From the IMG/VR virus record IMGVR_UViG_3300046820_001270, positions 270,493 through 334,492 of that record: a DNA stretch of 64,000 nucleotides; one strand, given 5' to 3'. Within the stretch, counting starts at the first letter, position 1, and each line of letters starts with the position of its first letter. The position numbers and the translations under genes were made by a program. This DNA comes from a virus (Duplodnaviria > Caudoviricetes). Positions 24,297-49,841 of the stretch are shown in pieces. The notes below the pieces were generated by a model. It saw only the letters and a program-made list of their open reading frames with translations. It searched no databases and was not told the DNA's origin.

Positions 24297-27200
24297 ATGA
24301 TGCAAAAACATAGAATTTCAACCAATTTAGGAGTCGATCAAAAAATTACAGTCGAATTAAAACAAGATTTCGATGTATTGGAGATTTTATCTCTTAAATT
24401 CTCTCAATCAGATATATATACATCTATATGTTCAGACTATGGTGTTGTTTGTGGTAGAGTTACCGCCAATAATGGTTTTGGTCTTGGTAATGCTCGTGTT
24501 TCTATTTTCATACCTTTATCTGCAGAAGATGAAGAAGATCCTGTAATATCAAAATTATATCCATACAAAGAGGTTACAGATAAAGATGATAACAATTACA
24601 GATACAATTTATTACCAAAAAGACAACAACATGGTGGCCACGCTCCCACAGGTACATTCCCTGATCAAAGCGAAATTTTAGGGAGAGAAGAGGTTTTAGA
24701 GGTTTATGAGAAATATTATAAATTTACGGTAAAAACAAATGGTGCGGGTGATTTTATGATATGGGGAGTTCCGATCGGAAACCAAACCGTACACGTTGAT
24801 GTAGATTTATCAGATATCGGATGTTTTTCATTAAGACCAAATGATTTCCAAAGAATGGGAATTGGTTTGGATCAATTTAAAAATAAATATAGTTTTAAAT
24901 CTTCAGAGGATATTGATTCATTACCTCAAATAGCAACATTTGATAGAGTTATAGAAGTTTATCCTTTTTGGGGAAACGAAGATTTATGTGAAATTGGTAT
25001 CTCAAGAACTGATTTTGATTTATCAGATAAAGGAATTAATATATTACCGAGAGCATATCTAATAGGAGGAACTTACACCGATAGTGCTAAAAATGCAATT
25101 AATAAAAATTGTACCCCAAGAAAGAAAATGGGTAGAAAATGTGATTTAGTTGTAAAATCAGCAAAGGTTGAGGCTATAAGATTTAGTCAAATTAAAGATG
25201 AATATAATAGACCATATTTACAATATCTTAATTTTGATGAAGATGTTCCAGATGATGGAGGGTTTGTAATACCAATTGTAATGAACATGGATTTTGTTAT
25301 TACAAATGAGTTTGGGGAAAATGAAATCACAAATGATCCAAATAAAGGTATCGCAACGTCAGGTTGTTATAGATTTAGATTTAACATAAATGATCAAGGA
25401 TTAGAAAGGGCTAGACAAAACGCCGATTACTTAATACCAAACGTAAGAGAATATGGGCATTTTAAAACTCCATCGGACCAAACTAGTGAATGGTTAATTA
25501 AAGATGAATCATATGCGTTTTCAACAAATTATAACGATTATTGGCCAGATGCTTTACCATTAATTTTAAATAACGAAGACGGACAGTTTTATCCAAAAGA
25601 TTATTTTTATAGATTTAGTTATAATAAAGTTTACACGGTGTCGTCTTTTCAAGGATCAACACAAGCACAAACGGGATCATTTGGTTTCGGAAATAATAGA
25701 TATTTGGGGTTAAAAGATTTAGCACCTGGAGAAGAAGAAGATTGTACTGATAACCTAACCCCACCTGTAAATTTTGGTACTAAAAATTATACTTTTCCAC
25801 TTTTAATTGCTGACATATTGTTATTGTTAGAATATCTTTTTAATTTTATCACTTTATTATTTTTTAATTCAGCATCAAGATTATTACACGAAACTGCAGA
25901 TTGGGCTTTAGATCGAGGTTGGCCAATGGCACGTCTTGGTAAGTATCTAAAAAAATTGGCATATAATTTACAAGATAGTGGACAAAAAGGGTTAGGTCTT
26001 ATAACTTATCCTGAATGTGATGAATGTTCGGCTGGAGAATTTGGAGCAACTAGCAATTTTACCGAAAAAAGAATTAAATTTTGTAGAGTAGGTACTGTAA
26101 AATTAATTAAATCACAAGTAGGTCAGGGAGGTAGTTTAGAAGCACATGATATTAGTTTCTCCACTTCTTTTTTAAAGGGAGCATGTATTGCATATAACCA
26201 ACAAAATAATATTATTCCAAGTGGAGGGTTCGGTGGATTTAGACCGGTACAACAAAATTATTATTTAAATGACACCTACATTGAATTAACAAAAACAAAC
26301 ACGGAGGGGGGTTCATATTTTTGGGAAGAAACACTTATCGATATTAGTTGGGATTTAGGTTATTTAGGATCTGGAGGAGTTAACTCAACGATACAACATT
26401 TCAGAGATGGTACAGGCGAATATTCCGCAGAAACAGGTTGGTTTTATCCTGGCATTTATTATAAATATTATGATGAGGATGGTGTTGATTGGTCAAGTGG
26501 AGGACCGTCACAAGGTATAGTGAATGTTGCATTAGAAAGTGGTTGTGATATATATGATTCACCTTATAATGAAGCTTTAGTAAACAGATATTATACATCT
26601 GAAACAGGAGATAGATCACCAATTTTACCTTCAGCTTACAATCCAAATACAATGGATTTAGTTGGTGCAAATTTAACAGATGATGGAAAATTTAAATTAA
26701 TAAAACAATATAGTGATAAATCTTATTCACCATTCACACCATCAGGTCAATCAGAATTTAAAGATGGTATGTTTTACGTTGTCCCCGGATCTCAAACAAA
26801 CGCAAGATTATTAGGTATTTTAAAAGAACACCGTATTAGAAAAAGAGTTGGTAAATTATTTTGTGGAGGAATTGTTAGTTATTCATATATAGATAACTGG
26901 TTATCAGGTTCTTTATATTTTTATCAGTTTAAAGCTAAGAGAGTGTTTAAAATGGTAGAAAGTGCAATTAGATATTGTAGAGAAACTGTAAGATTTGTAA
27001 CGGCAAATAAAGTAAATAGATTTTATTATAGATCAACACCAATATTAACGGGAACAACCGTAGGATTTGTCGGTAAAGTTGAAAATAACGGACTTACTCG
27101 AAGATTAGGTCACCCAACCACATTTGTAGATTTAGGACCTAGAGATGAGTTTATTAAAGAAATATGTATAGATAAATCATTAGATCCTAACTGTTCAATA

Positions 27201-28277
27201 TCAAGAAATATTGGCCCTACATCATATAAAAATTTTGGTGAATTAATGGGTCTCGCAATTAACTATAGACTCGACACTTCAAATAACGACTATAGTATTA
27301 ATAATTTTTTTGATAACACAGGGTTTAAAAATAATGGATTTCAACAAGTATTAGGTGGTGATATGTTACAATTAATTTCTATCAATAGTGAAGTGGGAAT
27401 TGAAGAATTTGATTTACAAAGTCCAAAGTATTTGGGTTATTCATATCAGTATTTAGATCCTGATTTATATCCTGATGTGTTTAAGAAAACAGGTATCGAT
27501 GGAAACCAATATTGGGGACCCGTACCTATTACTTTTGAATTAGATGATTCAGGGGAAAGAGTTAGACTTTGTTTAAACGAACCTGGTAGATTGGGTTGGG
27601 ATTCCAATACATATGGTTCATCACAAACAGTTCCATTTTATTTATGGGATAAGAAAGGTTATGGATTTGGTGGAACATCAGAAGCAACCGCAGATAACCA
27701 ATCTTGGGATTATATGAATGTGGAATTACAACCATTACAAGGTATGACTAAGGCCTACGATTACTATGGTCAAAATGATGATGACTCAGATAAGTATATG
27801 TTATTACCTATGACAAATAATTTTAGTGGATTAACAATAACTAATATGAATGTCACAGGTGTTGAAATTGAATTTGATGATATAATAACGGGAATAACCT
27901 CTGGAACCACAATTGAAATAGGACCAACAACAGGTAATACATTATATAACGGAGAATATCCTGGTTATACAATTTTAATGGTAGATACGGGAACATTAGA
28001 AGAACCTCTTACAGGTAGATTATATGTTAGAATTGGACCGGCAATGGGCAATAGTATTCATTTAGGTAGAACAATAACAAATGGATTTTATAAAATGAGC
28101 TGGACTCCAAATATGGATTTCATGATATTACCTAAAAAAGATTATTACTCAACCACGACAAAACAAATTTTGTCAACACCGTTCCAATTTTATTTCGGAT
28201 TGAAAGCCGGTAAAACCGGACTTGATAAATTTATAGACCAATTTGGTCCAAAGGGAGCGTTCCCATCAGCTGAATAA
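24297..28277 (+). CDS. Large baseplate-associated structural protein with an N-terminal prealbumin-like (CarboxypepD_reg-like) domain
   Basis: VVCGRVTANNGFGLGNARVSIF and TVKTNGAGDFMIWGVPIGNQTVHVD. Follows the gp6-like gene and is preceded by TATTTATT. Confidence 0.6.
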   Translation: MMQKHRISTNLGVDQKITVELKQDFDVLEILSLKFSQSDIYTSICSDYGVVCGRVTANNGFGLGNARVSIFIPLSAEDEEDPVISKLYPYKEVTDKDDNNYRYNLLPKRQQHGGHAPTGTFPDQSEILGREEVLEVYEKYYKFTVKTNGAGDFMIWGVPIGNQTVHVDVDLSDIGCFSLRPNDFQRMGIGLDQFKNKYSFKSSEDIDSLPQIATFDRVIEVYPFWGNEDLCEIGISRTDFDLSDKGINILPRAYLIGGTYTDSAKNAINKNCTPRKKMGRKCDLVVKSAKVEAIRFSQIKDEYNRPYLQYLNFDEDVPDDGGFVIPIVMNMDFVITNEFGENEITNDPNKGIATSGCYRFRFNINDQGLERARQNADYLIPNVREYGHFKTPSDQTSEWLIKDESYAFSTNYNDYWPDALPLILNNEDGQFYPKDYFYRFSYNKVYTVSSFQGSTQAQTGSFGFGNNRYLGLKDLAPGEEEDCTDNLTPPVNFGTKNYTFPLLIADILLLLEYLFNFITLLFFNSASRLLHETADWALDRGWPMARLGKYLKKLAYNLQDSGQKGLGLITYPECDECSAGEFGATSNFTEKRIKFCRVGTVKLIKSQVGQGGSLEAHDISFSTSFLKGACIAYNQQNNIIPSGGFGGFRPVQQNYYLNDTYIELTKTNTEGGSYFWEETLIDISWDLGYLGSGGVNSTIQHFRDGTGEYSAETGWFYPGIYYKYYDEDGVDWSSGGPSQGIVNVALESGCDIYDSPYNEALVNRYYTSETGDRSPILPSAYNPNTMDLVGANLTDDGKFKLIKQYSDKSYSPFTPSGQSEFKDGMFYVVPGSQTNARLLGILKEHRIRKRVGKLFCGGIVSYSYIDNWLSGSLYFYQFKAKRVFKMVESAIRYCRETVRFVTANKVNRFYYRSTPILTGTTVGFVGKVENNGLTRRLGHPTTFVDLGPRDEFIKEICIDKSLDPNCSISRNIGPTSYKNFGELMGLAINYRLDTSNNDYSINNFFDNTGFKNNGFQQVLGGDMLQLISINSEVGIEEFDLQSPKYLGYSYQYLDPDLYPDVFKKTGIDGNQYWGPVPITFELDDSGERVRLCLNEPGRLGWDSNTYGSSQTVPFYLWDKKGYGFGGTSEATADNQSWDYMNVELQPLQGMTKAYDYYGQNDDDSDKYMLLPMTNNFSGLTITNMNVTGVEIEFDDIITGITSGTTIEIGPTTGNTLYNGEYPGYTILMVDTGTLEEPLTGRLYVRIGPAMGNSIHLGRTITNGFYKMSWTPNMDFMILPKKDYYSTTTKQILSTPFQFYFGLKAGKTGLDKFIDQFGPKGAFPSAE

Positions 28278-30169
28278 TGAAAAAGAAAGAAATATTATTA
28301 CCTACTGAAAGGTATTTTAAGGCGGAAGAACAGGATCTTAATTTAAATATAAAATTAGAGAATGATGAAACTTTATTAAGAGAAGGTGATAAAGATATTG
28401 TTTTAAATTTAGCTGAATTATATAACGAAGAAAGAAACAAAAGTGCTAATTATAAAATATTTGGTAAAATAAAAATGGTATTTAGAAATATGTATTCCGG
28501 ATATACCGATTATACGCCACTATTAAAGAATTTTTATTTAGTAAATGACGGGACATCAGAAAATACCGCCGATAGTACTATTGGATTTGTTCCATATAAC
28601 GAATTTGCATTTCATAGGAATGATGTTAAAAGAGAAGTTTCCACACCTAAATCAGGATCAATAATAGGTATCCCTAATAACGTACCTAGTGTTACAATAC
28701 CATCTGGTAATAGATTTACAGGACATACGTCAACAACAGTAATGGAAGCCCCGTATAAAAATTGGAATCTTTATTTAAGTTATGTTTATACAGGACAAAC
28801 GGATTTCCCAATGAAATATACATTATCAGGGGACACTAATGGTAATAAAACATATTCATTTAACTCTGGAGACGGAATACCATTTAGAGTTACCGATGAC
28901 GGTGGAAATTATTACACTTTAACATCACCAGTGGAACATGGATTTAGTCAAGGTGAGTATATTATATTATCAGGAGGAACTTATACAACATATTCAGGAA
29001 TTACAACAGGTAAGACATTTTATACAATTCCAATAACAAAAGATACTGAAATATATAGAATTTTTTATATTGATAATGTCGGTAACGAAATATATGATTC
29101 AGAAAAATACGTAATTAATATTTTAAAAAGTGAATTTACATCGGGAACAACATTAAGTTCTGTAGTGTTAGGTAGGAGGTGTAAAAACATTAATGATATA
29201 ACAGGAACAACATCCCAATATTATGTACACAAACATAAAACATTATCAACAATCAATGATTATATTTTAGATAAAGTTGGTTTTGAAAATACAATATGGG
29301 AAGATGAAAGAAAAATTTTATTTGAAAATACTTTACAAGAAAATGACATTCTAGTAGAAAGAAATAGACAAGAAACTTTATTGTTTGATTTTAAAAATAA
29401 TTTTACATTATCAGGAATAACAAATAATTTGGGATACACACCAACTGAGGTATATGCTAGTATTATTTTTAAAAATGAAAATGGATTTTTTACTTACCCA
29501 CCAAAAGTAGGTTATAAATTTAATTTTCATAATGATTGGATGGATAATCAATTTAGTGGTTCAACATCAAACGAAACAACAATATCAACAAGAACATTTA
29601 CAGGAAATACTTCAGGATTTACATTTATAGGTGGACAAGTGACTGGTTTAACAAAGGGAACAGTTTTAACCGGTGCATTTGTGGAATATAATAGAGGTGA
29701 AATTAAAGAAAGAATTATTAGTGAAACATATCATAAATTTTCACATAGAAAAACAACAGGAGACGGAAAAAGGTTTTTTGACCATTCCCAAGATCAATCA
29801 AGTTTTTATTCTGGTGCAACAGCATCTAATCCGGTAGGATATTATTATCAACCACATCATAGAATTAAACTAAGAGAATTATCACCTTACATTGAAAGTT
29901 CAAAATTAGATTCAACACAACCACAAACTTTAATTGATTTACCTGAAAATACCATTTTTGACAATGCGGAAAAACTTTGGAAATGGAGAGATCTTTATGA
30001 TCACGGATTTATTGATCAAGAAGGAAATGGAACAAATTTTCCATTTATGAATAATTCACATTATGTTATGAAAAATATTAATTTTTATTTAAGAAATGAA
30101 AATTCATATATAAATAAAAACGATGAGTTAATTGGATTTAATAATTATAGAAATAAAACTAACTGTTAA
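28277..30169 (+). CDS. Structural protein (baseplate or tail), rich in [S/T]GxT
   Basis: 630 aa, coupled by TAATG overlaps at both ends within the baseplate operon. Confidence 0.6.
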   Translation: MKKKEILLPTERYFKAEEQDLNLNIKLENDETLLREGDKDIVLNLAELYNEERNKSANYKIFGKIKMVFRNMYSGYTDYTPLLKNFYLVNDGTSENTADSTIGFVPYNEFAFHRNDVKREVSTPKSGSIIGIPNNVPSVTIPSGNRFTGHTSTTVMEAPYKNWNLYLSYVYTGQTDFPMKYTLSGDTNGNKTYSFNSGDGIPFRVTDDGGNYYTLTSPVEHGFSQGEYIILSGGTYTTYSGITTGKTFYTIPITKDTEIYRIFYIDNVGNEIYDSEKYVINILKSEFTSGTTLSSVVLGRRCKNINDITGTTSQYYVHKHKTLSTINDYILDKVGFENTIWEDERKILFENTLQENDILVERNRQETLLFDFKNNFTLSGITNNLGYTPTEVYASIIFKNENGFFTYPPKVGYKFNFHNDWMDNQFSGSTSNETTISTRTFTGNTSGFTFIGGQVTGLTKGTVLTGAFVEYNRGEIKERIISETYHKFSHRKTTGDGKRFFDHSQDQSSFYSGATASNPVGYYYQPHHRIKLRELSPYIESSKLDSTQPQTLIDLPENTIFDNAEKLWKWRDLYDHGFIDQEGNGTNFPFMNNSHYVMKNINFYLRNENSYINKNDELIGFNNYRNKTNC

Positions 30170-32760
30170 TGGAGATATTAAAAAATAACACTAATTTAAA
30201 TGTTGTTATTAATACTGAACAAAATTTTAGGACTGATTTAGGTTGGCAGGAAAACTTTGCAGATTTTGAAAAGGAAGTTTTAGAAGACATTGTTAATCCG
30301 GCAAAGAATTATGAAACAGTTAGATACATTCACAGACCTTATACAAGTACAACTGAATTATTACAATGTGATATTTGGTTTAGTTTTTATTTTATTAGCG
30401 GATCAACATACGTACAAGATTATTATTCGGACAATGTACAAATAACAACAAGAGAGAATGAACTAATGTTGAGACAATCAACAGAAAGTTTCTTTAGATT
30501 AGAATTTTATAAAACACCCGGTACTGTAACTAATGGAGTACTAACATGCGATCCCCCAACAAGACAAAATAGAAGATTTGTTAATAGTAAAAATCTTTCT
30601 TTACCATTAGGTGAAAAGTTTTTTTATGAACCAGAAAATTCAGGTTATTATATTCATTTACCAATTTTTACAGGATCAAATTATAGGAATAAAGAAAATA
30701 TGTATTTGTTTTGGTTTGATGATGAAAGTGTATTAGAAGATAGTAATTTAAGTGGAACAACAACTTTGGATAGATATATTTTTACAAAAAACGTTACAGG
30801 AAACACTTCATTTTTATTTGTTAACGAATTCAATCAAATAATTCAAGTTTTATTAACGGGAAATACACCAACGATATTATCGGGAACAACAGGTCAAACA
30901 TTTGATATTTCAGGTGTTAATTATTATGTGGAAAAAAGAAGTGACGGATCACCGTACTATCACGGAATGAATACATTCTTTATGACCGCAAAATTCTTTA
31001 ATGGTAAAGATGGTAGTATTTTAGATTTTACTAATTCAGGATTTACTACAGGTCATACTGTAAATGAATCTTCGGATATGTACTATCAAGTTGATTTTGA
31101 TAATTATGAAAGAACATATCAAATATACAAATATAGTGGAGGTACAAAAGGAAGTAGAGTTGGAACTAGTAATACAAGTTTAACAAATACAATTGAATTT
31201 TACGAAAAGGGAGGTGCAATTAAAATGACACCATTACCAACCGCAACAACACCTATAGGAACAACACCCACCCCAACACCTACCCCAACACCTACACCGG
31301 CGGCCGTTCAATATTGGTATCATTTAAAAAGATGTGACGCAAATGTGGTTGAATATTCTATTAGATATAATCTTAATACTTTTACAATTGGACAAATAGT
31401 ATATGGTCACGACACACATTATTACTATACTGTAACAGGCAGTACTGCAACAACAAGCACAAATCCAGGTTCGTCAAATATATTAATTGACACTACAACA
31501 TTTACTAGATGTGAAGATACACCATATTATGTACAGACAAGATCTAAAATAACATTGGCGGATATACCATTTTATTCTGGTTTAACATCAACAGATCTTA
31601 TAAATAAAGTTTGTAACAAAACAATTGGCCAAATTACTGAAGGTACTGCAACTTCTTTAGATGTATGGGTAGATGATGATCCATATGTATTTGGTACAAC
31701 ATATACGGCATATTTATCAAGTACAGGAAATACAATATATGTGGGAGGCAACAGACATTATGGAGTAATTGAAAATAATATTATAACTTCAATTTTATTT
31801 ATTTCTAGTAATAATTCAGAAAATAATTTATATGCGTGGAAAGCGTGTGGAGAACCATTTAATGAAGATGACTGTTTTGTTTATGTAAATAACACTGCGT
31901 ATACTTCTTTAGTAGATTATAAAGATTGTTTTACACAAACATGGAATTATTCATTTCCTGTTCCACCATATACTGGAGTTTGTGCGGCGTACGGAACAGT
32001 CACGGTTATAAGTGGTGCGGATTTAATGAAGACAGAAAATAGTTGTGGACCAACACCTACACCAACACCATCTAGTACTCCAACACCAACACCTACACCA
32101 ACACCATCTAGTACTTCCACACCGACACCAACACCTACACCAACAAGTGACGGATCTACATCAACTCCAACACCTACCGCAACACCCACACCAACACCTA
32201 GCCCAACATCTAATTGTGTAACATCTGTACAATTTGAGGTTGATTTGGGAGGTCAAGTTAGATATGTGGATTGTTGTGGTAATACACTATATCCCAATTT
32301 CGGTATTGGACCACAAGTAATAAACGATTGTATTCAAATTGATTCATTATTTAGTACAAGTGCGAGTATTACGGACGTATCTTATGGATCAACGCCTTGT
32401 AGTTGTGTGTCAACCCCAACCTCAACACCAACTAGTACACCAACAGTAACATCATTACCATATACGGTAACAGGAACGTATAATACCCAAGGAACTGTAA
32501 ATGGGGTTGCAAATGGAACTTTAACCGTAAATAGTGGAACTGTTACGGTTACATTTGAAGTGTTTTCAGGAGTATGTTCAGGATGTTCAAATACTGGTTA
32601 TTTAACAGAAGGTGCGAGTTTAACAATAACTTCGACAAATACACAATTTCCAAAAATAGAATCACAATCATTTAGTAAAGGAGTTGGGGTTCATGATTTT
32701 ACAATAACAAGTAGTCCTGATAGCGACAGTCAAAAATATGCTAGATTAACTTTCTCATAA
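30169..32760 (+). CDS. Structural protein with C-terminal Pro-Thr linkers and Cys-rich modules (fibre-like)
   Basis: 863 aa. The N-terminal region is non-repetitive, followed by (TP)n tracts and Cys modules, one of which is duplicated at 46505-46745. Confidence 0.65.
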   Translation: MEILKNNTNLNVVINTEQNFRTDLGWQENFADFEKEVLEDIVNPAKNYETVRYIHRPYTSTTELLQCDIWFSFYFISGSTYVQDYYSDNVQITTRENELMLRQSTESFFRLEFYKTPGTVTNGVLTCDPPTRQNRRFVNSKNLSLPLGEKFFYEPENSGYYIHLPIFTGSNYRNKENMYLFWFDDESVLEDSNLSGTTTLDRYIFTKNVTGNTSFLFVNEFNQIIQVLLTGNTPTILSGTTGQTFDISGVNYYVEKRSDGSPYYHGMNTFFMTAKFFNGKDGSILDFTNSGFTTGHTVNESSDMYYQVDFDNYERTYQIYKYSGGTKGSRVGTSNTSLTNTIEFYEKGGAIKMTPLPTATTPIGTTPTPTPTPTPTPAAVQYWYHLKRCDANVVEYSIRYNLNTFTIGQIVYGHDTHYYYTVTGSTATTSTNPGSSNILIDTTTFTRCEDTPYYVQTRSKITLADIPFYSGLTSTDLINKVCNKTIGQITEGTATSLDVWVDDDPYVFGTTYTAYLSSTGNTIYVGGNRHYGVIENNIITSILFISSNNSENNLYAWKACGEPFNEDDCFVYVNNTAYTSLVDYKDCFTQTWNYSFPVPPYTGVCAAYGTVTVISGADLMKTENSCGPTPTPTPSSTPTPTPTPTPSSTSTPTPTPTPTSDGSTSTPTPTATPTPTPSPTSNCVTSVQFEVDLGGQVRYVDCCGNTLYPNFGIGPQVINDCIQIDSLFSTSASITDVSYGSTPCSCVSTPTSTPTSTPTVTSLPYTVTGTYNTQGTVNGVANGTLTVNSGTVTVTFEVFSGVCSGCSNTGYLTEGASLTITSTNTQFPKIESQSFSKGVGVHDFTITSSPDSDSQKYARLTFS
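32206..32443 (+). repeat. Dispersed direct repeat, copy 1 (about 240 bp); copy 2 is at 46505-46745
   Basis: Long identical blocks, e.g. aatttcggtattggaccacaagtaataaacgattgtattcaaa and tatcttatggatcaacgccttgtagttgtgtgtcaaccccaacctcaacaccaactagtacaccaa. Confidence 0.95.
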
Positions 32761-32763
32761 TAT

Positions 32764-34146
32764 ATGAAAAGAAACGAATATAAAATATTAAAAAGAGAAA
32801 TACCTGATGTGAATTTACATTCACTTACAGGACAATATTGGTTTGAATATAGTAATCAATGGTTATCTTGGGTTACAGGATCACTTCGTATTCCTGGTAT
32901 GACACCTGAAACAGGTAGTTTAGTACACGATATTAGATGGTATTCAGGTATAACATATAATTTAGATGATACGTTATTTTATAGTGGTAAAACATATATT
33001 TCATTAAAAGATAGTAATTTAAATCATATTCCATCTGACGTAAGTAGTTCATATTGGAATGAAATTGAACAAAGAGCAATAAACAATACACAAGGAAAAT
33101 ATTATAAATGGAATGGTAATTCGTGGGTTCTATATACAGGTCCTTTAGGATATGATTACGTTATACCAATTGCTCTTGAGGCAGACGCCGATGAAATGGG
33201 AGTGTTTTCTTCTTTTGATGGTTTTATTGAACAGGTGGAACAAATTGTAAATTTTTCTTATAAACAAAGTGAATCTACAATTACAGTATATGGTACAATG
33301 AATCCTGATAAATTAAGAAAAATAGTAGATCAGAGTTTTACAATTAATTGGGGAGACGGAACTACAGGTTCTTTAGGTGTTAATAGTGGAGTTCTTTATA
33401 GTAATTTTCCATCTACAACACATACATATACCACAAGTGGACAACATTTAATAACAATAACGTTAGACTCCCCTTGGTCAAAACAAAAAACACAAAAAAT
33501 AGTTACCACACCCCAGAATATTACGGTATCAAATCCAATGGGAACATTTACAGGATTTACAATCCCAAGTGACGGATCTAATTTAAATTATTTAAATGAT
33601 TATGAATACGCCACAGGTTATACTGCAACACCGTCAAAACCATTTAAATTCATGGCCATCGGTCAAAGTAAAATTGGTGATTTTAAAAGATATGGTGAAA
33701 CTGTACCCCGCGGAGTTGATTCAGGTTCATTAACTGACGGAACAAAGTATACAGGTTATACCGTAAATGGGTTATATTATATGGACAGAGAAGACGGTTT
33801 CACACAAATAACGGGAAGTGTATCGAATTATAGATTCGGACCAACAAGTGGTTATACATATGAAATTAGTGGAGATACTATTAATACCATACCGTATTTA
33901 ACTACAAGTGGAAATACAACTGAATTTGAAACCGAATATGATGTGATAAACTACATCACTCAACATAGATTAACAAGAAACGAACATTTCATTGGGTTTA
34001 TCGATGATCCAACCGTTTATTCTGACGTTTTTGTGGAGAGAGGCCGACAGGGAGTGATGGAAGTTAACTTAAGATTGGGGGAAATTGACAATATGAGTGA
34101 ATTAGATATCTACGGAAATGGATATTTTAAGGTAAGAAAACAATAA
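32764..34146 (+). CDS. Structural protein with CBM5/12-like and PKD-like domains
   Basis: YNLDDTLFYSGKTYISLKDSNLNHIPSDVSSSYW is CBM5/12-like. FTINWGDG...THTYTTSGQHLITITL is PKD-like. Confidence 0.6.
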   Translation: MKRNEYKILKREIPDVNLHSLTGQYWFEYSNQWLSWVTGSLRIPGMTPETGSLVHDIRWYSGITYNLDDTLFYSGKTYISLKDSNLNHIPSDVSSSYWNEIEQRAINNTQGKYYKWNGNSWVLYTGPLGYDYVIPIALEADADEMGVFSSFDGFIEQVEQIVNFSYKQSESTITVYGTMNPDKLRKIVDQSFTINWGDGTTGSLGVNSGVLYSNFPSTTHTYTTSGQHLITITLDSPWSKQKTQKIVTTPQNITVSNPMGTFTGFTIPSDGSNLNYLNDYEYATGYTATPSKPFKFMAIGQSKIGDFKRYGETVPRGVDSGSLTDGTKYTGYTVNGLYYMDREDGFTQITGSVSNYRFGPTSGYTYEISGDTINTIPYLTTSGNTTEFETEYDVINYITQHRLTRNEHFIGFIDDPTVYSDVFVERGRQGVMEVNLRLGEIDNMSELDIYGNGYFKVRKQ

Positions 34147-34170
34147 AAATTATATTTATAATAAAAGTTT

Positions 34171-41000: not shown

Positions 41001-41915
41001 AGTTCCTATTGGGTATTAGATGGACCGGGTTTACCAATAAGAGCACAAGCACCTTGTCCAACAACGACCCCAACTAGTACACCTATACCACCTACCCCAA
41101 CATCAACACCGGTACCACCAACATCAACACCAACACCTATACCACCGACTAGTACTCCAATACCACCAACGCCTGTACCAGCAACTTCATTTACGGCATA
41201 TATTAGTGTAGATGATGGATCAGGATCAGGAGCCAACGCATGTAATGGGGGAAATTTCAGTTCATATTTTGCATATCAATTTAATGGATTTTATGGAACA
41301 ATGTGTGATGCTAATAGTTATATTGAAGGTGCTATTATTCAAGCAGAAATTGATCCAAACGGGTATTTTTGGTTAAGTGAAGGATCAGGACAATCAAGAT
41401 ACTTTAGAAAATACGGTTCAACAAATAGAGCATATCCACAAGAGGGTTGTGTAAACTGTCCAACACCGGTACCACCAACATCAACACCAGTACCACCAAC
41501 ATCGACACCTGTACCACCAACATCAACACCGGTACCTGATCCAACATCAACACCGGTACCTGATCCAACATCAACACCGGTACCTGATCCAACATCAACA
41601 CCGGTACCAGCACCAACACCAACACCTGGAACATCATATACATATCGATTAGGACCATCATACACATTGGCAAGCCAAGCATGTACAAATTTCGGTATGG
41701 ATTTGTATACTGAAGTCTTCGCAGCAACGAATGAAATAACTGAGGTACAACAATTCTTCACAGATTCTGGTCTAACAGCATTATATTTAGGAGAGAATGA
41801 AACTCACGCATTTCAATTAATGGATGGAGCTTTTCCAATTGGTATCTCATATTCAGGAAGAATTTCATACACAGGACAGGTATCGGATAGAACATTCTGT
41901 GCGGAACAACCTTAA
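35091..41915 (+). CDS. Baseplate wedge-like protein (gp7/P2 gpI-like N-terminus) fused to a degenerate Hint domain and a long PT-rich Cys-module fibre
   Basis: [22 protein letters not shown] is the KGT motif of gpI/gp7-like wedges. Hint-like region at 38577-39185. The last ~850 aa are PT repeats with Cys modules. Confidence 0.65.
39591..40337 (+). repeat. Eight copies of C-x-F-[DG]-V-[DE]-x-x-I-x-[TS]-A-T-P separated by PT tracts
   Basis: [112 protein letters not shown]. Confidence 0.9.
41517..41588 (+). repeat. Three exact 24-bp tandem repeats (PTSTPVPD)
   Basis: ccaacatcaacaccggtacctgat x3, flanked by further degenerate copies. Confidence 0.9.
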
Positions 41916-41964
41916 TAAAAAATAAAACAAAATAAACAGATATTTATAAAAAGAAACAAATAAT

Positions 41965-42528: not shown

Positions 42529-42552
42529 AATTAAAAAATACATAACAATATT

Positions 42553-42580
42553 AAAACCCCTTTATTATGAGGGGTTTTTT
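42553..42580 (+). terminator. Rho-independent terminator
   Basis: aaaacccct-ttattatg-aggggtttt followed by further Ts. Confidence 0.85.
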
Positions 42581-42613
42581 ATTTAAATTCCATATAATAC
42601 TATTTATAGAGAT

Positions 42614-44812
42614 ATGGGTTTAAATATTAGATTACATAACATAAATTTAAAGAATAACTTTAAATTATCATATAGAATTGGTAATACCTCAGGGGATGTT
42701 AATACAATAAACTCAGGTTATACCAATTACACTATTGGTGCAACCTTGAGTGGAAATACAGTCTACCCCTCAAGTGATGTGAGAGATTACGAAACAAACC
42801 CAATTATTTTTACTGGTGCAACATTCAATACACAATATTGGTTTAAATTTTTAGATCAAACAACAGGTTTATATACAATTGAAAATATTAACACACACGA
42901 AAGTAAGTATTATGAGTGTTATGATAAGATAGATTTTTATGTTACCGTAACAGGAGATATTTGTGATACACCTTTAAATGGTGATGTATTTAACCCAACA
43001 ATTACATTATATGATTATTTAAATGATACCGGTTATTACGGTAACCATTCATCGATGACGGGATCGACAGGTTCAGTTTATAACGTATATACAGGAAATA
43101 CATCAGATATTAATGGAACTTCAACAGGATTAATTAAATCGGGAGCAACAACAAATCAAAGTAATGGAATTATACATTCATTTAATTATACGGTAAATTA
43201 CCCACCAACATTACCAATGCAACCATTATATGTTTTTGTTGAACATATGGACGGAAGTGTATGGAATGGTAATAACACAAACCCAAAAAAACAAGGAGGT
43301 TTTGAAGTGAAAAGAGTAAGAATGGAAAATATATTTGATTATGTTAGTACTAATGAAACTCAAACACCATTACCAACTAGTACTCTAATGGCAACACCAA
43401 CTAGCACACCAATATCACCAACCGCAACACCAACTAGTACTCCTATTATATCAACTAGTACACCAACACCTACACCAACTAGTACCCCTATAACACCAAC
43501 TAGTACACCAATTATACCAACTAGCACACCTATAACACCAACTAGTACTCCTATAATACCTACTAGTACACCTATAACACCAACTAGTACACCTGTTTCA
43601 ACAACTAAATTTATTGTTAAAAAATGTGCAGGTAGCGGTGGAGATGGTGTAACAAGTTATAAAGTCCAAATTGCACCAAATGCAACACTAAATAAATCTT
43701 ATACATTATATGGTGGAGTGGGAGTACCTGCAGATATGGATGGTTATAATTGTTGGTATGTTGAAAGTACTGTAACTGATACCACATCACCTGATTATAC
43801 TTTAAATTATCATGCGGAATATAACGATTGTGGAAGTTGTAGTTCAGTTTCATTACTAGTTTATTCGGGTAATTCATTACCAAACGTATGTGCATCAACA
43901 ACCGAAATAACAGTTTATTATAGAGGCACATTAGGTGTCGATACGATTTTATATACTACATCAAATCTTTCAGATGAAGTGGAAACTCCAGGTTATTATA
44001 AATCGGTAAATAATGGAGATATTTACCACGTAGGTGTTGCTGGTCAATATCCATATATACCATCACCAGGAGATGGTTGGATTACTGACATTCAACTTTG
44101 TCCAACACCAACTCCAACACCTATTCCATCTTATACATTTAATTTATATGTAAGTGAAACAAGTGGCGCAGTTGCTTGTGCTGGAGGTGACACACCCGCA
44201 GGTTCTTATCATCAATTTGTAATAACAGGTAATACAACTAATTTCTGTACATCAACATCATTTACTTGTGATTTTATAACATCATATGATCTTTATCAAT
44301 TTTGGGTTAGTGATGGAACTAATTCAAGAAGTTTAACAAGAAATGGTGGTCAAGGTATTGAAACAGCATCACCTGATGGTGCTTGTTCTGTATGTGGATC
44401 AACTCCAACTCCTACACCGACTAGTACACCTACTCCAACCCCAACAGCAACACCTTCATTACCGGCCGGAGTTTTAGGTTTTGGATCTTCAGATAGTAAT
44501 TACCAACAATGTGACGGACTTAATAACTATGAGTATAATAGAACATACTATGTTGATTTTACAAGTGCAAGAAGTATGGGTGGATATGTTGTTGTTTATT
44601 TAAATGATAATTCAAACATACAATTACCATTTAATCAAAGTGCCACCTCTGCATCTTTAACCGTTTCATGTGGATGTGGGTCAGACTGTGCAAGTATAGA
44701 ATATGTAATGAATGTAATATATATCACACCAACCCAAACACCAGAACCATTATTACCTACATCTACACCAACTGAAGGAGGTGGAGGAGAGGTTCCACTT
44801 GAACCAACATAA
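42614..44812 (+). CDS. Fibre-like protein with PT linkers and several Cys modules
   Basis: 732 aa containing PTSTPI(I/T) repeats at ~43430-43590 and four Cys-containing modules. Confidence 0.65.
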   Translation: MGLNIRLHNINLKNNFKLSYRIGNTSGDVNTINSGYTNYTIGATLSGNTVYPSSDVRDYETNPIIFTGATFNTQYWFKFLDQTTGLYTIENINTHESKYYECYDKIDFYVTVTGDICDTPLNGDVFNPTITLYDYLNDTGYYGNHSSMTGSTGSVYNVYTGNTSDINGTSTGLIKSGATTNQSNGIIHSFNYTVNYPPTLPMQPLYVFVEHMDGSVWNGNNTNPKKQGGFEVKRVRMENIFDYVSTNETQTPLPTSTLMATPTSTPISPTATPTSTPIISTSTPTPTPTSTPITPTSTPIIPTSTPITPTSTPIIPTSTPITPTSTPVSTTKFIVKKCAGSGGDGVTSYKVQIAPNATLNKSYTLYGGVGVPADMDGYNCWYVESTVTDTTSPDYTLNYHAEYNDCGSCSSVSLLVYSGNSLPNVCASTTEITVYYRGTLGVDTILYTTSNLSDEVETPGYYKSVNNGDIYHVGVAGQYPYIPSPGDGWITDIQLCPTPTPTPIPSYTFNLYVSETSGAVACAGGDTPAGSYHQFVITGNTTNFCTSTSFTCDFITSYDLYQFWVSDGTNSRSLTRNGGQGIETASPDGACSVCGSTPTPTPTSTPTPTPTATPSLPAGVLGFGSSDSNYQQCDGLNNYEYNRTYYVDFTSARSMGGYVVVYLNDNSNIQLPFNQSATSASLTVSCGCGSDCASIEYVMNVIYITPTQTPEPLLPTSTPTEGGGGEVPLEPT

Positions 44813-44828
44813 AAATATTAAATAAAAA

Positions 44829-46100
44829 ATGAGTAAAGGAATAAAAATAGATTTTGGTAATGGAGGTTTCACTTATGATGTTTACACATCATTAAGTAGA
44901 ACGTCTTGGAGTGATATACCATATATTTCTGGATTTACGGGTCAAACTTTAACAATTAATACTGATTTATTAGGTTATACGGGTATTACGGATACTGTTT
45001 TATATGTAAAAACAACTTGTCCTCATTGTAAACCACAAATAGTAAAAGTAAAATTAGAACCGGAACCAATATCATTAACAGGATCTACTGTAAATGGTAC
45101 GTGTGAAAATTGTGGTGATATCGATGAACCAGAATGTAACGGTGCAATTACTTTATATGTTTGTGGTGGAGTTAGACCATTTACATATCAATGGTCAGGA
45201 GCGACTAAAAGTGGTAAAGTTATCACATCAACAACAAAAGATTTAGGATATTTGGAGGAAGGTAATTATAATGTAATAGTTTCCGATAGTTATGGAATAA
45301 CAGGAACAACAGGTTTTACTATTGATGTAGCACCTTGTAATCCACCGATAAATTTAACAGCGGTAGCACCTATCATTTCAACCCCAACACCAACACCTAC
45401 ACCTAGTCCAACACCTACACCTACCAATACATCAACCCCTACCCCAACACCTAGTCCAACACCAACACCTACACCTACCGCCACAGATAATGACGGAAGT
45501 ATTTTATTAGTCTCTAGTTCATCTAGATCTTCGGCTTGTAATGAATATGAAACAGGTACAAAAGTTAAATATTGGGTTATGGATGGTGGAGGATTACAAA
45601 CGGGTAATGTCTTGTGTCAAAATAATAACTGTTCAACTAAAGCACTAAATGGTTTTTATTCTGACGGTACAAATTATTATGAAGTAGGATATGGAGGAAC
45701 AGGTGAAATAATTAGTCAGGGACTATGTAGTGCTCTTGGTAATACAACAATCGGTTTAAGTAGTTCCGCAACATGTAGAACCGTTGGTTCTTGTAACGAT
45801 AACGCTACTTGTGGTGTTAGAATACCAATATTATTTAATAATGGAAGACCAAGTGCAACACAAATATTTGTCACAGTAACATCATCACAAAGTGGTGCAA
45901 GTGTTTCTATATATAACGATTTCGGAGATAATGCTACTGGTTGTTTTCTTATTTATACTGAAAATAGTGGTTCTGGAACTATAGCGTTCACTTTAACACT
46001 TAAAACTTCCCCTGGAAATGAATATATATGTGATAGTGGTCTAATAAATTTATCACATAATAATGGGGGACAACCTTGGAGTATGTTAAATGACTGTTAA
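44829..46100 (+). CDS. Fibre-like protein with a SprB-like repeat, a PT linker and Cys modules
   Basis: CNGAITLYVCGGVRPFTYQWSG...TTKDLGYLEEGNYNVIVSDSYG matches the Bacteroidota SprB repeat consensus. Confidence 0.7.
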   Translation: MSKGIKIDFGNGGFTYDVYTSLSRTSWSDIPYISGFTGQTLTINTDLLGYTGITDTVLYVKTTCPHCKPQIVKVKLEPEPISLTGSTVNGTCENCGDIDEPECNGAITLYVCGGVRPFTYQWSGATKSGKVITSTTKDLGYLEEGNYNVIVSDSYGITGTTGFTIDVAPCNPPINLTAVAPIISTPTPTPTPSPTPTPTNTSTPTPTPSPTPTPTPTATDNDGSILLVSSSSRSSACNEYETGTKVKYWVMDGGGLQTGNVLCQNNNCSTKALNGFYSDGTNYYEVGYGGTGEIISQGLCSALGNTTIGLSSSATCRTVGSCNDNATCGVRIPILFNNGRPSATQIFVTVTSSQSGASVSIYNDFGDNATGCFLIYTENSGSGTIAFTLTLKTSPGNEYICDSGLINLSHNNGGQPWSMLNDC

Positions 46101-46123
46101 AAATAGTAAAATAAAAATATAAA

Positions 46124-47626
46124 ATGGCACAAACATTAACAATATCGTGGGGAGCACCTAATAATGATAATTCACCACAACAAGTGACGGGTTATACTTT
46201 AAGTTATAAAAAGACAAGTGAAAATGTTTACACAAAAATAACGGGAATTTTAAGTGGAACCACAAGTTATGTTTTAGGTGGATTAGATGGAGGAACAAAC
46301 TATGATATTTGTGTACAATCAAATTGTACCCCAAGTTGTGTTAGTGAAAAAGTGTGCACTACAAAAACAACAAACGCAGACCCAACCCCAACACCAACTA
46401 GTACTTCCACACCGACACCAACACCTACACCAACCCCTACAGCCACTAGTACACCAACTCCAACTCCAACCCCAACCGCAACACAAACACCAACTCCAAC
46501 TCCAACATCTAATTGTGTAACATCTGTACAATTTGAGGTAGTTAGTGGAGGTGATGTTAGGTATATAGATTGTTGTGGTAATACACTATATCCTCCCAAT
46601 TTCGGTATTGGACCACAAGTAATAAACGATTGTATTCAAAATGGTTCATTATTCGCAGTTGGTGCAAGTATTACGGATATATCTTATGGATCAACGCCTT
46701 GTAGTTGTGTGTCAACCCCAACCTCAACACCAACTAGTACACCAATACCACCAACCGCAACACCATTTGCGACAATATTAAATAACGTTTATGTTAGTGA
46801 TCCATTAACTAGTACTCCAACCGAACAAGATTTAACTTTAGCAATAGAAGACGCTTGTGAGGGTAATAGTAATATTAATACATTCTTAGGTGGTCCTGCA
46901 ACGATGACAGTATACGGTTCCAGTATTTGTGATGCGTCCGCTATGTTTGATCCAAGTACAATTATTCAGCAAGATGTGACATCAGGAGGAATTATTATTT
47001 TAAGACAATTAATTAATAATTTTGGTGGAAGTGGAGGAAATAAATTATGGTACAGAAAATTCCAAAGATCTGTAGGTGTAAATGTTAATATGTATACACC
47101 TATTGGTGGTTGTTTAGAGTGTGGAGTACCAACCCCAACAGCAACCGTACCGCCACAAATTACAGTTAATATTTACGGAAGACAAAATATTCCATATAAT
47201 GCCGTATCAAATAATTTACAATTAGTTTACCAAACATATAGTTCAACTTTAGGCCCACTTAATCATACATCATCAGGTGTACAAAAATCATTAATAGAAG
47301 GAGAAACCTTCTTAGTAAGTCCAAATGTAGATGCTGGCGGTTATTTGAATTTAGGTTTGTATTTAAGGGAGACAAATGGTGCATGTGATTATCTTGAGGT
47401 TAATGTAAATGTATTTGTCGCCGGTGCTTATTTAACAAGTAGATTTACTGACTCTACAGGTTCATTATTAAGCGATTCTGGATGTGGTTTAGAAGGATCA
47501 TTGAATGGAGTAGGTATACCGGTAAGTCAAGCAATAGATGTATATATTAGCCCAACAGCGACAGGTGTGTGTTTTGGATCTGCTCTTACTCCACCAGGGT
47601 TAGAGTGTTTAACAACCAATGAATAA
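46124..47626 (+). CDS. Fibre-like protein with an N-terminal fibronectin type III domain, PT linkers and Cys modules
   Basis: LTISWGAP...VTGYTLSYKK...YVLGGLDGGTNYDICVQSNC is a clear FN3 pattern. Confidence 0.7.
   Translation: MAQTLTISWGAPNNDNSPQQVTGYTLSYKKTSENVYTKITGILSGTTSYVLGGLDGGTNYDICVQSNCTPSCVSEKVCTTKTTNADPTPTPTSTSTPTPTPTPTPTATSTPTPTPTPTATQTPTPTPTSNCVTSVQFEVVSGGDVRYIDCCGNTLYPPNFGIGPQVINDCIQNGSLFAVGASITDISYGSTPCSCVSTPTSTPTSTPIPPTATPFATILNNVYVSDPLTSTPTEQDLTLAIEDACEGNSNINTFLGGPATMTVYGSSICDASAMFDPSTIIQQDVTSGGIIILRQLINNFGGSGGNKLWYRKFQRSVGVNVNMYTPIGGCLECGVPTPTATVPPQITVNIYGRQNIPYNAVSNNLQLVYQTYSSTLGPLNHTSSGVQKSLIEGETFLVSPNVDAGGYLNLGLYLRETNGACDYLEVNVNVFVAGAYLTSRFTDSTGSLLSDSGCGLEGSLNGVGIPVSQAIDVYISPTATGVCFGSALTPPGLECLTTNE
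46505..46745 (+). repeat. Dispersed direct repeat, copy 2
   Basis: Near-identical to 32206-32443, with a 3-bp insertion (YPPNF vs YPNF) and short divergent patches. Confidence 0.95.
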
Positions 47627-47651
47627 AATAAAATAAAGATATTTATAACAT

Positions 47652-49841
47652 ATGAGTTTTTTAAATAGTAGTAATTCAGAATTTTTATCGGCAAGAATAA
47701 CCTCAAGAGGTAGAAATGCCATTGCAAAGGGTAATTTCAATATTGAATATTTCCAAGTTGGAGATTCTGAATTTGACTATAATTTACCTTTTACAGCATT
47801 AACAGGAACCACTAATCACCAAAAAGTGTTTACACCTTTTGAAAATGAAAGTGGAGTAAAATACCCTTTTTCATTAGATAGTTCCTTATCAACAACATAC
47901 GGTAATCCAATTTTAAACAATTCAATTACACCAATACGTAATGTTATGGGACCTGCGGGGTTTGTTTCTGATTATAAAACATTAGATGATGTAACAATTG
48001 CTTGTCCTGTTGAAAAAGTATATTATTCGGCAATAACAGGAACAAATACTTTTATTTTCACACATACAAGTAATGAGGTTGATTATTTAAATAAAGTTAA
48101 TCAATTCCAAAACGCGGAATATGTTACATTGGTTACCGATCAATTTGGAGGAACTAATTTACCTATAATAACTGGTAACAGTAATAGTTTTATCTATAAA
48201 AAAGTAGATTTTAATATTGTAACGGGAATAACAACAGGATCGACAACCGGTTATACAATAACATTAACATTGGATAGAAGTACCCCTATATTAACAGGAT
48301 TAACAGGATACGCACAAGTAGTCCGAAATAAATGTGAAATTGAGTATCCATTATCAAATGAAGTATCTCCTGTTTGTTCACCTGAACCATATGATCCAAT
48401 GGGACAATTAAATCCATGGACATTGAATGTTGTTTGGGGACAAAAACCAATTGGTGGTGATTACAATGGAACAGACGAAAGTCTATCTGGTTATACAAGT
48501 AATCAATTTATTTCTACTAAAAATTATTTAGGTTATACAACAACAGGACAAACGTTTTCTAATTTTACAGGTGGAACAATAACAGGTACCACATTTAAAA
48601 ATTCATTCAATGAGTTAATTGAAGTTTTACCAACAGAACAAAGAGTTATTGCAATTATTCATTATTCTGAATTAGGTGATTTAAGAAATGACCCTGAAAG
48701 ATTTTTTAAATATGATGATTACATTAGTAGTAAAACAGGTATAACAGGAGATGATTTATCTGTTATAACAAATGAAGATGGTGATGATATTAGTGATACT
48801 GATTATTTTGAAATTTATATTCCTTTCATTTACTATCATAGAAATACAACAGATACATTTGGTGCGAAATTTACAATGGATACAATTGACTATTATGTTA
48901 AACCAGTTTCAGGAACAACAGGTTCTAGATTTGAATTAAAGTTTAGATATTTGTTAGATGAACAAAATAATAAAGTAGGTAAAGTATTTGTCAACAATAA
49001 GATTGTAGTATTTGATGATCAAGAATTGGTTGCAATTTTAGATTACAGATCAAATAGAAGATATACATTACCTTCACCAAAATTAGGATTAACACCAAGT
49101 GATGGTGTTGCGGAACATTCAATGTTACCGACAACAGGTATGACAGCTTGGGTTACATATATGTTTGCCAATACAAGTGGAGATACTTTAAATTCATTAC
49201 CTTGTAATTATTTTAACAAAATATCAAGTAACACTATCCCATCACAAATTACAATGAAGTTTAGTGGAAATTCATTTTCTAATATGTCAACATCATTGTC
49301 GGGAGTAAAAGACGGTTTTGTTGCAAATAAGTTCTATGCGTTAATTCAAACAGGAACAACACCATCTCCAAATCAATGGAAGAAAATTGATATAACATCT
49401 CAAATACCTGGTTACACAACAGGTTATATTAATCCAACAGGATTAACAGGTGTTTCATTTACGATTAATTATTCAGGATATACAGGTGGAACTTATTTTG
49501 ATTTTGAAGATCATATGTCGGGAGTTACTTCAGATTATTTATGGAACACAACAGGTTCTACAACACAACCACAATTTGGTGACGAACAACCATTCCCTGG
49601 TAGTATTAGATTTGTAAGGTCAACAGACATTCAACAAATGAATTTCTTAGTTAACTTACCGTCAACACAATTTACCACAACACAAAATCCAACGTGGGTA
49701 AATGAAAATACATCGGGTAAACCATTTATCACTGAAGTTGCGTTATTAGATTCTAATAAAGAACCATTGGTTGTTGCAAAAACATCTACACCGGTAAAAA
49801 GAACGGGAACACAAGTTTTTGCGGTAAAATTAGACTTCTAA
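47652..49841 (+). CDS. Tail-collar or fibre-anchor-like structural protein (split DUF3751-like motifs)
   Basis: N-terminal ARITSRGRNAIAKG...FQVGDSE and C-terminal FITEVALLDSNKEPLVVAK, with a long [S/T]GxT-rich middle. Confidence 0.55.
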   Translation: MSFLNSSNSEFLSARITSRGRNAIAKGNFNIEYFQVGDSEFDYNLPFTALTGTTNHQKVFTPFENESGVKYPFSLDSSLSTTYGNPILNNSITPIRNVMGPAGFVSDYKTLDDVTIACPVEKVYYSAITGTNTFIFTHTSNEVDYLNKVNQFQNAEYVTLVTDQFGGTNLPIITGNSNSFIYKKVDFNIVTGITTGSTTGYTITLTLDRSTPILTGLTGYAQVVRNKCEIEYPLSNEVSPVCSPEPYDPMGQLNPWTLNVVWGQKPIGGDYNGTDESLSGYTSNQFISTKNYLGYTTTGQTFSNFTGGTITGTTFKNSFNELIEVLPTEQRVIAIIHYSELGDLRNDPERFFKYDDYISSKTGITGDDLSVITNEDGDDISDTDYFEIYIPFIYYHRNTTDTFGAKFTMDTIDYYVKPVSGTTGSRFELKFRYLLDEQNNKVGKVFVNNKIVVFDDQELVAILDYRSNRRYTLPSPKLGLTPSDGVAEHSMLPTTGMTAWVTYMFANTSGDTLNSLPCNYFNKISSNTIPSQITMKFSGNSFSNMSTSLSGVKDGFVANKFYALIQTGTTPSPNQWKKIDITSQIPGYTTGYINPTGLTGVSFTINYSGYTGGTYFDFEDHMSGVTSDYLWNTTGSTTQPQFGDEQPFPGSIRFVRSTDIQQMNFLVNLPSTQFTTTQNPTWVNENTSGKPFITEVALLDSNKEPLVVAKTSTPVKRTGTQVFAVKLDF

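Follow-up and report, generated by a model that had tools for sequence, protein, structure and literature searches.

The stretch of DNA analyzed here, referred to as the window, comprises 64,000 nucleotides (positions 270,493 to 334,492 of the IMG/VR record IMGVR_UViG_3300046820_001270) from the 334 kb genome of an uncultured phage of lake origin. It is a low-GC stretch (∼31%) of a T4-like jumbo phage, in which family searches identified genes for gp32, a UvsX/RecA-like protein, a DnaB-type helicase, a ribonucleotide reductase (RNR), a primase, SbcCD, ClpP, a sigma factor and a DNA methylase. The element under study, the four-residue protein motif [ST]-G-x-T, is carried by the large genes downstream of a baseplate-J/gp6-like gene at 22410. 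A first-pass annotation had noticed that this motif saturates the virion proteins while being absent from enzymes, and had proposed it as a recognition sequon, for example for phage-encoded O-glycosylation. The obtained results showed an approximately sevenfold excess of the motif in the baseplate and fibre proteins of the window. The features concerned are listed below, with the expected motif counts derived from per-protein shuffles.

2011..6804 (+), 1597-aa protein; weak enrichment, 5 motifs against 1.3 expected, p 0.009
9499..10591 (+), motif cluster in the 1971-aa hub-like protein (7114-13029); 7 of its 8 motifs
22410..24242 (+), Baseplate-J/gp6-like wedge protein of the inner baseplate, start of the baseplate/fibre block; 0 motifs
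27048..27942 (+), C-terminal variable part (residues 918-1215) of the 1326-aa protein (open reading frame 24297) after baseplate J; all 5 of its motifs
28277..30169 (+), 630-aa baseplate-periphery protein; 15 motifs against a shuffle mean of 0.88, z 15.5
30169..32760 (+), 863-aa protein; 12 motifs against 2.6 expected
32764..34146 (+), 460-aa protein; 8 motifs against 0.9 expected
35091..41915 (+), 2274-aa fibre protein; 20 motifs
42614..44812 (+), 732-aa protein; 7 motifs against 2.6 expected, p 0.01
44829..46100 (+), 423-aa protein; 7 motifs against 1.7 expected
46124..47626 (+), 500-aa fn3-containing protein within the block; not enriched, 2 motifs against 1.8
47652..49841 (+), 729-aa fibre or baseplate protein, family not assigned; 19 motifs against 1.63, z 13.9

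The pooled analysis covered the 11 proteins encoded at 24297-49841, in which the Pro-Thr stalks were masked. These proteins held 100 motifs against 13.6 expected (about 13.5-13.6; z 25, ∼7x), and the excess therefore persisted under shuffles of equal composition, the check proposed with the original observation. The remaining 30 open reading frames (ORFs) of the window, which encode non-virion proteins, held 4 motifs in total against 3.3 expected, and none was found in the RNR (19491) or in SbcC (57975), as had been reported. The earlier hand counts of 15 and 19 motifs in the 630-aa and 729-aa proteins were exact. The "many more" motifs mentioned for the genes at 24297, 30169, 32764, 35091, 42614 and 44829 were counted as 5, 12, 8, 20, 7 and 7, and the cluster noted in the hub at ∼9500-10600 comprised the seven motifs at 9499-10591. 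An unbiased scan covered all gapped patterns of three residues, and TG.T and SG.T ranked first once the low-complexity patterns of the Pro/Thr/Ser stalks had been set aside. No significant enrichment over the shuffles was detected in ORFs 46124, 34171 and 41965.

Within the proteins, the motifs occupied particular regions. In the 2274-aa fibre protein, 19 of the 20 motifs fell between residues 132 and 1353, ahead of the Pro-Thr/Cys-module region, and the 729-aa protein contained a (TGxT)x3 tandem at residues 191-202. The eight motifs of the hub-like protein spanned residues 121-1156, with seven of them within 796-1156. Searches of the motif-rich proteins against Pfam and PHROGs returned nothing but fn3 and one PHROG without a function; the 630-aa protein matched no family in either database, and a tblastn search with it against cultured phages gave no match. 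The wedge protein showed a weak Pfam Baseplate_J match and, aligned over 99% of its length, was 28% identical to a protein of Flavobacterium phage immuto that is annotated as "baseplate wedge protein". This phage and Microcystis phage Mel-JY01 are the nearest cultured relatives, with wedge proteins ∼26-28% identical to that of the window.

The motif was sharply defined at each of its fixed positions. Across the 11 proteins, enrichment was restricted to Ser or Thr at position 1 (7x), Gly at position 2 (7.4x) and Thr at position 4 (7.4x). The variants [ST]G.S (10 against 10.8), [ST]N.T (11 against 11.7) and [ST]D.T (9 against 9.1) were flat, and [ST]G.V (11 against 7.9) and [ST]G.I (10 against 8.1) reached only ∼1.3x. 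The position preceding the motif was occupied mostly by Y, L, I, T, F or V and almost never by D, E or G, which bears out the earlier remark that the motif often follows a hydrophobic residue. Hydrophobic residues flanked the motif at both -1 and +4, while E and P never occurred at x. Other sequons were not enriched in the same proteins, namely N-x-[ST] (108 against 103, z 0.5), D/E-x-N-x-S/T (9 against 11.4) and SGxG (5 against 5.1), and D-[ST]-[AILVMT] was depleted if anything (19 against 30, z -2.2).

An excess of this kind might arise from composition, low complexity or a bias at the DNA level. The proteins are indeed rich in Thr, Ser and Gly, and permuted motifs built of the same residues gave 7-35 matches (23 for the reverse motif), ∼1.6x over the simple expectation, reflecting local clustering of these residues. 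This reading is nonetheless excluded by the per-protein shuffles, the masking of the Pro-Thr stalks, the permuted and near-neighbour motifs, the reverse-strand frames and the codon usage, and we consider its probability negligible. The reverse strand of the region held 8 motifs against 6.5 expected and the codons at position 1 were mixed (ACN, TCN and AGY); the signal therefore lies at the protein level, and a DNA-level motif was discarded. All-versus-all BLASTP among the motif-rich regions detected no homology, the only duplications being those of the Cys-module and of a C-terminal part, both outside these regions. Duplication is therefore not the explanation, and a hidden repeat or shared domain was likewise ruled out. 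The motif had been described as scattered and neither tandem nor duplicated. The lack of homology agrees with this, but short tandem pairs and one triple with a spacing of 3-5 do exist (12 against 4.5 expected), while the spacing is otherwise irregular.

Comparison with homologues can reveal whether individual sites or the overall number of motifs are retained. Each of the two families searched, those of the 630-aa and 729-aa proteins, had roughly a thousand homologues, and site statistics were calculated for 120 homologues among the matches listed for each family, which were 57-100% identical to the query. In the 630-aa family (57-99% identical), each homologue carried 9-19 motifs (mean 14.6) drawn from 54 motif columns. 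Five columns were near-universal (at least 90% of homologues), 13 occurred in at least 50%, and 21 occurred in at least 5% yet were absent from the query. Nine of the 15 query sites were kept as a full motif in at least 74% of the 120 homologues, with x varying. The 729-aa family showed 14-26 motifs per homologue and 70 motif columns. At site 184 of the 630-aa protein, the identity of x was 0.18 while the motif was kept in 0.91 of the homologues; at site 495 of the 729-aa protein, the respective values were 0.02 and 0.93. Ser and Thr interchanged at position 1 (58%/30%), while position 4 was Thr in 82%, Ser in 3%, and Val or Ile in 3%. These alignments indicate that the sites turn over while the number of motifs is maintained.

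More distant relatives were retrieved by a profile search of 1.8 billion representatives, which yielded 78 full-length homologues of the 630-aa protein at 21-51% identity. They carried 0-9 motifs, and none kept more than 4 of the 15 query sites. At identities of 42% or less, 0-6 motifs were present and at most 2 of the 15 query sites were kept. About half of the query sites sit in clade-specific insertions. The remaining sites stand where the distant homologues have generic G/N/D turns with other, frequently acidic, neighbours. As judged from these homologues, the 630-aa fold does not need the motif.

Whole-genome checks were performed on two proxies. G001 is a complete 335,630-bp relative that is syntenic with the window and holds homologues of most window proteins, typically 46-97% identical, and G002 is a complete related genome of 310 kb that is more divergent. 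Eight genes of G001 held 93 motifs against ∼13 expected, while the other ∼338 genes held 106 against ∼102. The enriched genes encode the tail sheath, a 519-aa protein to which no function was assigned, the hub and orthologues of the window block. In G002, nine genes held 89 motifs against 10, and these were mostly orthologues of the enriched genes of G001. The hub orthologue in G001 carried 10 motifs against 1.5. The orthologue of the weakly enriched 1597-aa protein was not enriched (2 against 1.8), and that of the 1326-aa protein is shorter (1130 aa, of which only 584 residues align) and carried 1 motif. The major head protein of G001 was weakly enriched (3 against 0.6). As a general statement, the original attribution to virion proteins is thus too broad; the enrichment concerns the fibres, the periphery of the baseplate and the outer portion of the sheath. 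Around the homologues of the 630-aa gene at 80 loci, same-strand ORFs held 3026 motifs against 611.

The tail sheath provided a further view of where motifs are acquired. Its conserved core is formed by the C-terminal ∼310 residues (PHROG tail-sheath matches at 653-963). The sheaths of four lineages carried 7, 7, 11 and 9 motifs, all of them outside the last 310 residues and mostly at non-homologous positions, and the homologous sheaths of Mel-JY01 and T4 carried none. The sheath motifs were thus gained independently, at different positions of the outer part. The sheaths of G009 (85801-89433) and G013 (63107-67225), at loci L211 and L216, are 1210 and 1372 aa long, about twice the size of T4 gp18, and their extra length lies wholly outside the conserved C-terminal core.

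The excess is specific to a lineage and is no general property of tail or fibre proteins. The 20 virion proteins of T4 held 17 motifs against 12.4, and the baseplate/fibre modules of the outgroups gave 5 against 4.7 in Mel-JY01, 2 against 1.7 in LR756508 and 22 against 12.3 in immuto. Lineages L125-L136 and L197 were considered as motif-poor members of the group and rejected as such, as whole contigs showed an enriched sheath and enriched distal fibres. In the lineages of G009-G015, the sheath, distal fibres and 143370-like proteins were enriched (e.g. 22 against 5, 13 against 2.8 and 11 against 1.9). Their inner baseplate was not, with 0-3 motifs in the homologue of the 630-aa family, 0-1 in the gp7-like protein and 0-1 in the hub, the last value including the lineages of G009 and G013. 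The motif therefore marks the non-core part of the sheath and the distal fibres in all lineages examined, and has spread to the baseplate periphery in the clade of the window. Since an enriched sheath and fibres were found in every lineage examined, the trait is old and group-wide. Lineage specificity, distant homologues of the same fold that lack the motif, site turnover and the independent gains in the sheath together give good support to the convergent accumulation of a recognition motif that the first-pass annotation had proposed.

The search for glycosyltransferases (GTs) that had been suggested as a check was carried out on the relatives. Matches to GT2 numbered 6 in G001, 3 in G002 and 1 in G003, and G001 additionally held 5 GT1 matches, two of which exceeded the family cut-off, together with 2 GT9 genes and 6 epimerase/dehydratase domains. 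A variable sugar-metabolism island at 263-305 kb (loci L102-L104, L227 and L228) accounts for many of these G001 genes. It includes the six epimerase/dehydratase domains, among them an 872-aa double fusion with a 2-oxoglutarate oxygenase domain, as well as the two GT9 heptosyltransferase-like genes, several GT2 genes and a GT1 protein of 921 aa. No epimerase or GT9 match was found in the complete, motif-rich G002, and the island was accordingly rejected as a requirement. A GT9/TibC-like enzyme was rejected as a universal reader on the same grounds, PF01075 being present in G001 and G004 only.

Two GT2 genes are common to G001 and G002. One of them, GT2-259, encodes 259 aa (G001 134170-134949) in a conserved block between head and tail genes, next to weakly scoring GT-B-like genes of 351 and 407 aa. 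Of 24 related contigs, 9 carry it, among them every contig above 200 kb except G007, and it is 44-47% identical in distant lineages. G007 was dismissed as a counterexample lacking the GT, since the flanking block (PhoH and the neighbour of the GT2 gene) is missing too and lies off the contig; G009 ends just short of the expected position. GT2-259 has no homologue in any cultured phage, motif-poor outgroups included, and gave no meaningful sequence match in the PDB and no match in NCBIfam. A ThyA-type hydroxymethylase is the usual route to glycosylated DNA, and none was found in the two complete genomes. The gene content of the window phage matches that of the moraphage lineage, for which Flavobacteriia hosts are predicted and whose core genome holds four putative glycosyltransferase orthogroups (PMC12619734). 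The motif-bearing group of aquatic jumbo myoviruses probably infects Flavobacteriia.

We propose that h-[S/T]-G-x-T, where h is Y, L, I, T, F or V, could act as a short linear tag whose high copy number is kept by selection. The tag would be displayed wherever the tail faces outward, on the fibres, at the periphery of the baseplate and on the outer sheath, and it is shared by a large group of aquatic jumbo myoviruses, all as yet uncultured. A trans-acting reader is suggested because of the lineage specificity, strictness and turnover of the motif, its independent gains outside the sheath core and its tandem arrays. The most likely reader would be a soluble, phage-encoded glycosyltransferase working in the cytoplasm, which would O-glycosylate one of the two hydroxyl residues of the motif and so produce a sugar-coated tail. 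The best candidate enzyme would be the core-conserved GT2-259 with its GT-B-like neighbours. As a phage glycosyltransferase is the most economical reader, we assign a probability of about 0.45 to the motif being an O-glycosylation sequon. The fuller version is held somewhat more tentatively: a group-wide cytoplasmic O-glycosylation in which the new four-residue sequon is read by the small core GT2 and its GT-B partners, giving an outer tail glycan whose positions would evolve like the glycan shields of animal viruses.

Several points weigh against this proposal. The many GTs of the related complete genomes and the conservation of GT2-259 favour the glycosylation originally suggested, but the modification is a prediction, and nothing in the results connects the motif with GT2-259 or another GT. 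The acceptor of GT2-259 could be DNA, a lipid or a polysaccharide. The association between GT and motif rests on few outgroups and is confounded by phylogeny, and no block-bearing genome of the group lacks the GT, which leaves no informative contrast. As the sugar island and GT9 are absent from motif-rich G002, only the core GTs can be universal readers. The five columns of the 630-aa family kept in at least 90% of homologues are what a structural role would also predict, the strict Thr in place of Ser at position 4 is unusual if the hydroxyl alone mattered, and in the one medium-confidence model the secondary-structure context of the motif was not significantly different from that of other Ser/Thr residues.

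In the main rival reading, the motif would be a structural element complete in itself, a tight turn or a cap (e.g. an ST-turn or nest followed by a beta-branched Thr) that stabilizes exposed loops and hairpins of beta-rich tail proteins and remains unmodified. The AlphaFold model of the 630-aa family (predicted local distance difference test score, pLDDT, 70; predicted template modelling score 0.75; medium confidence) is beta-rich, and in keeping with a turn its motif Gly lies in coil at 12 of the 15 sites, and at 6 of the 15 the following strand begins with the Thr of position 4. By DSSP, position 1 was in coil at 8 sites, at a strand end at 4, within a strand at 2 and in a helix at 1. The 729-aa model (pLDDT 53) was unusable as a whole; in its confident part, T498 opens a strand and T567 closes one. 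The hydrophobic flanks at -1 and +4, the several sites kept in more than 90% of homologues, the strict Thr at position 4, and the G/N/D already present at the turn position of some sites in distant homologues also fit a turn. Against this, homologous folds do without the motif (0-6 in distant 630-aa homologues versus 9-19; 0 in the sheaths of Mel-JY01 and T4 versus 7-11), and the turn-formers N and D at position 2 or the beta-branched V and I at position 4, which a turn should tolerate, are not enriched. Moreover, the TGxT-TGxT-TGxT tandems cannot all adopt one hairpin geometry, sites turn over rapidly between close relatives, and the similarity of the secondary-structure context to that of other Ser/Thr residues tells against a dedicated turn as well. 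We regard the structural element as less likely than an O-glycosylation sequon but as the likeliest of the rivals. A Foldseek search of the 630-aa model against the PDB gave nothing at E <= 0.001. Residues 198-308 of the model form a small six-stranded beta-barrel with four motifs inside, which resembles the barrels of FAD-binding proteins and riboflavin synthase and the I-domain of the P22 coat protein (VIA-align wide, Z 6.6, below the trust level).

A tag could also be read by something other than a glycosyltransferase, be it a chaperone for phage assembly, a decoration or cement protein, or a different modifying enzyme (e.g. one that transfers acyl, phospho or nucleotidyl groups). Lineage specificity, turnover and the location of sheath motifs outside the conserved core apply equally to such a reader, and many genes common to G001 and G002 lack a functional assignment. 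Motifs bound by chaperones tend to be hydrophobic and degenerate, which counts against a chaperone as the reader of a strict S/T-G-x-T. DnaK/DnaJ chaperones are reported in the moraphage lineage (PMC12619734). No gene of the Pkinase family was found in the five genomes searched, and no candidate for a reader of this type emerged; we consider it improbable. Less probable still is that each motif would be a weak ligand-binding site, an anion or phosphate "nest" or a sugar contact, whose many copies on the outer tail parts might provide low-affinity adhesion to host envelope polymers or particles. The idea draws on the flavodoxin loop that binds the phosphate of flavin mononucleotide, (T/S)-x-T-G-x-T (PMC7084853), and is an analogy only; the motif sites have no fold or pocket in common, and a four-residue loop alone rarely binds a ligand.

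Further features were observed in the neighbouring genes. The 306-aa gene at 34171-35091 (+) is 93% identical to its G001 orthologue, compared with 46-71% for the neighbouring fibre genes, and 54% identical in the distant G009 lineage. It matched no Pfam or PHROG family and no PDB sequence, and in the Atlas it matched only unnamed viral clusters. Its product may be a conserved component with a part in assembly or as an adaptor; as a reader of the motif it was rejected as unsupported, having neither a family nor a PDB match. A 60-residue module is 82% identical between the 30169-32760 protein (aa 682-740) and the 46124-47626 protein (aa 130-189), and a further copy, 49% identical, is present in the 35091 protein (aa 1812-1870), which points to recent module exchange among the fibre genes. 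The 2274-aa fibre protein (35091-41915, aa 2183-2270) and the 187-aa protein (41965-42528, aa 95-184) are 45% identical over their C-terminal ∼90 residues and therefore have a C-terminal domain in common.

Two loci outside the baseplate/fibre block differed from G001. The 753-aa RNR-like gene at 19491-21752 (+) has no BLASTP homologue in G001, where two unrelated ORFs (178828-181638) occupy the syntenic position; this looks like a gene replacement inside a conserved replication block. At 56617-58036 (+), the N6_N4_Mtase DNA methylase and the adjoining 232-aa ORF both match one 294-aa gene of G001 at 25-28% identity, and the locus is thus variable between the window and G001.

Should the motif be a true sequon, no acceptor motif for the glycosylation of phage virions would have been defined before it, and it would join the few short, strict O-glycosylation sequons that are read in the cytoplasm of bacteria. 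Our literature search found no paper on an SGxT/TGxT sequon or on any phage sequon. Such a function would explain the several core glycosyltransferases of phages that are very abundant in lakes and the sea, and a glycan coat on the tail and fibres could affect adsorption, stability and escape from host defences. The tag and its enzyme would further provide a compact pair for glycoengineering. Even without a sugar, a strict four-residue motif that has been re-invented at dozens of positions in non-homologous outer proteins calls for a new explanation. The motif hypothesis is directly testable by co-expression and mass spectrometry.

Known glycosylation systems resemble the proposed one in part. 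N-glycosylation, including that by cytoplasmic N-glycosyltransferases, uses N-x-S/T, a sequon that was present at its expected frequency in the window proteins. The general O-glycosylation system of Bacteroidota is periplasmic and acts on the sequon D-[S/T]-[A/I/L/V/M/T]. It offers a short sequon in the likely host phylum, but this sequon showed no enrichment on the window proteins. The bacterial autotransporter heptosyltransferases TibC/Aah are soluble, cytoplasmic enzymes that O-glycosylate beta-rich surface proteins on Ser residues located where a strand meets a turn. They act on 19-residue beta-helix repeats arranged in tandem, and the AIDA-I repeat has hydrophobic-x-S-G-G. The motif regions described here, by contrast, have neither a repeat nor mutual homology, their spacing is irregular, and GT9 is absent from motif-rich G002.

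Among viruses, the chlorovirus PBCV-1 encodes a cytoplasmic machinery that attaches N-linked glycans to Asn of its major capsid and penton proteins at non-canonical acceptor sites (PMC7019647). The likeness lies in virus-encoded cytoplasmic glycosylation, whereas PBCV-1 is a eukaryotic virus with N-linked Asn, another motif and another chemistry. In mycobacteriophages, phage-encoded GTs glycosylate the virions, and glycans were reported at the C-termini of capsid and tail-tube subunits (Freeman et al. 2023, as cited in PMC12619734). As in that system, where the GTs modify the phage's own structural proteins in the cytoplasm, phage GT genes are present in the relatives of the window phage. Unlike the C-terminal acceptors of capsid and tail tube, the candidate acceptor proposed here is a strict four-residue motif that is dispersed over baseplate, fibres and outer sheath and hardly concerns the capsid.

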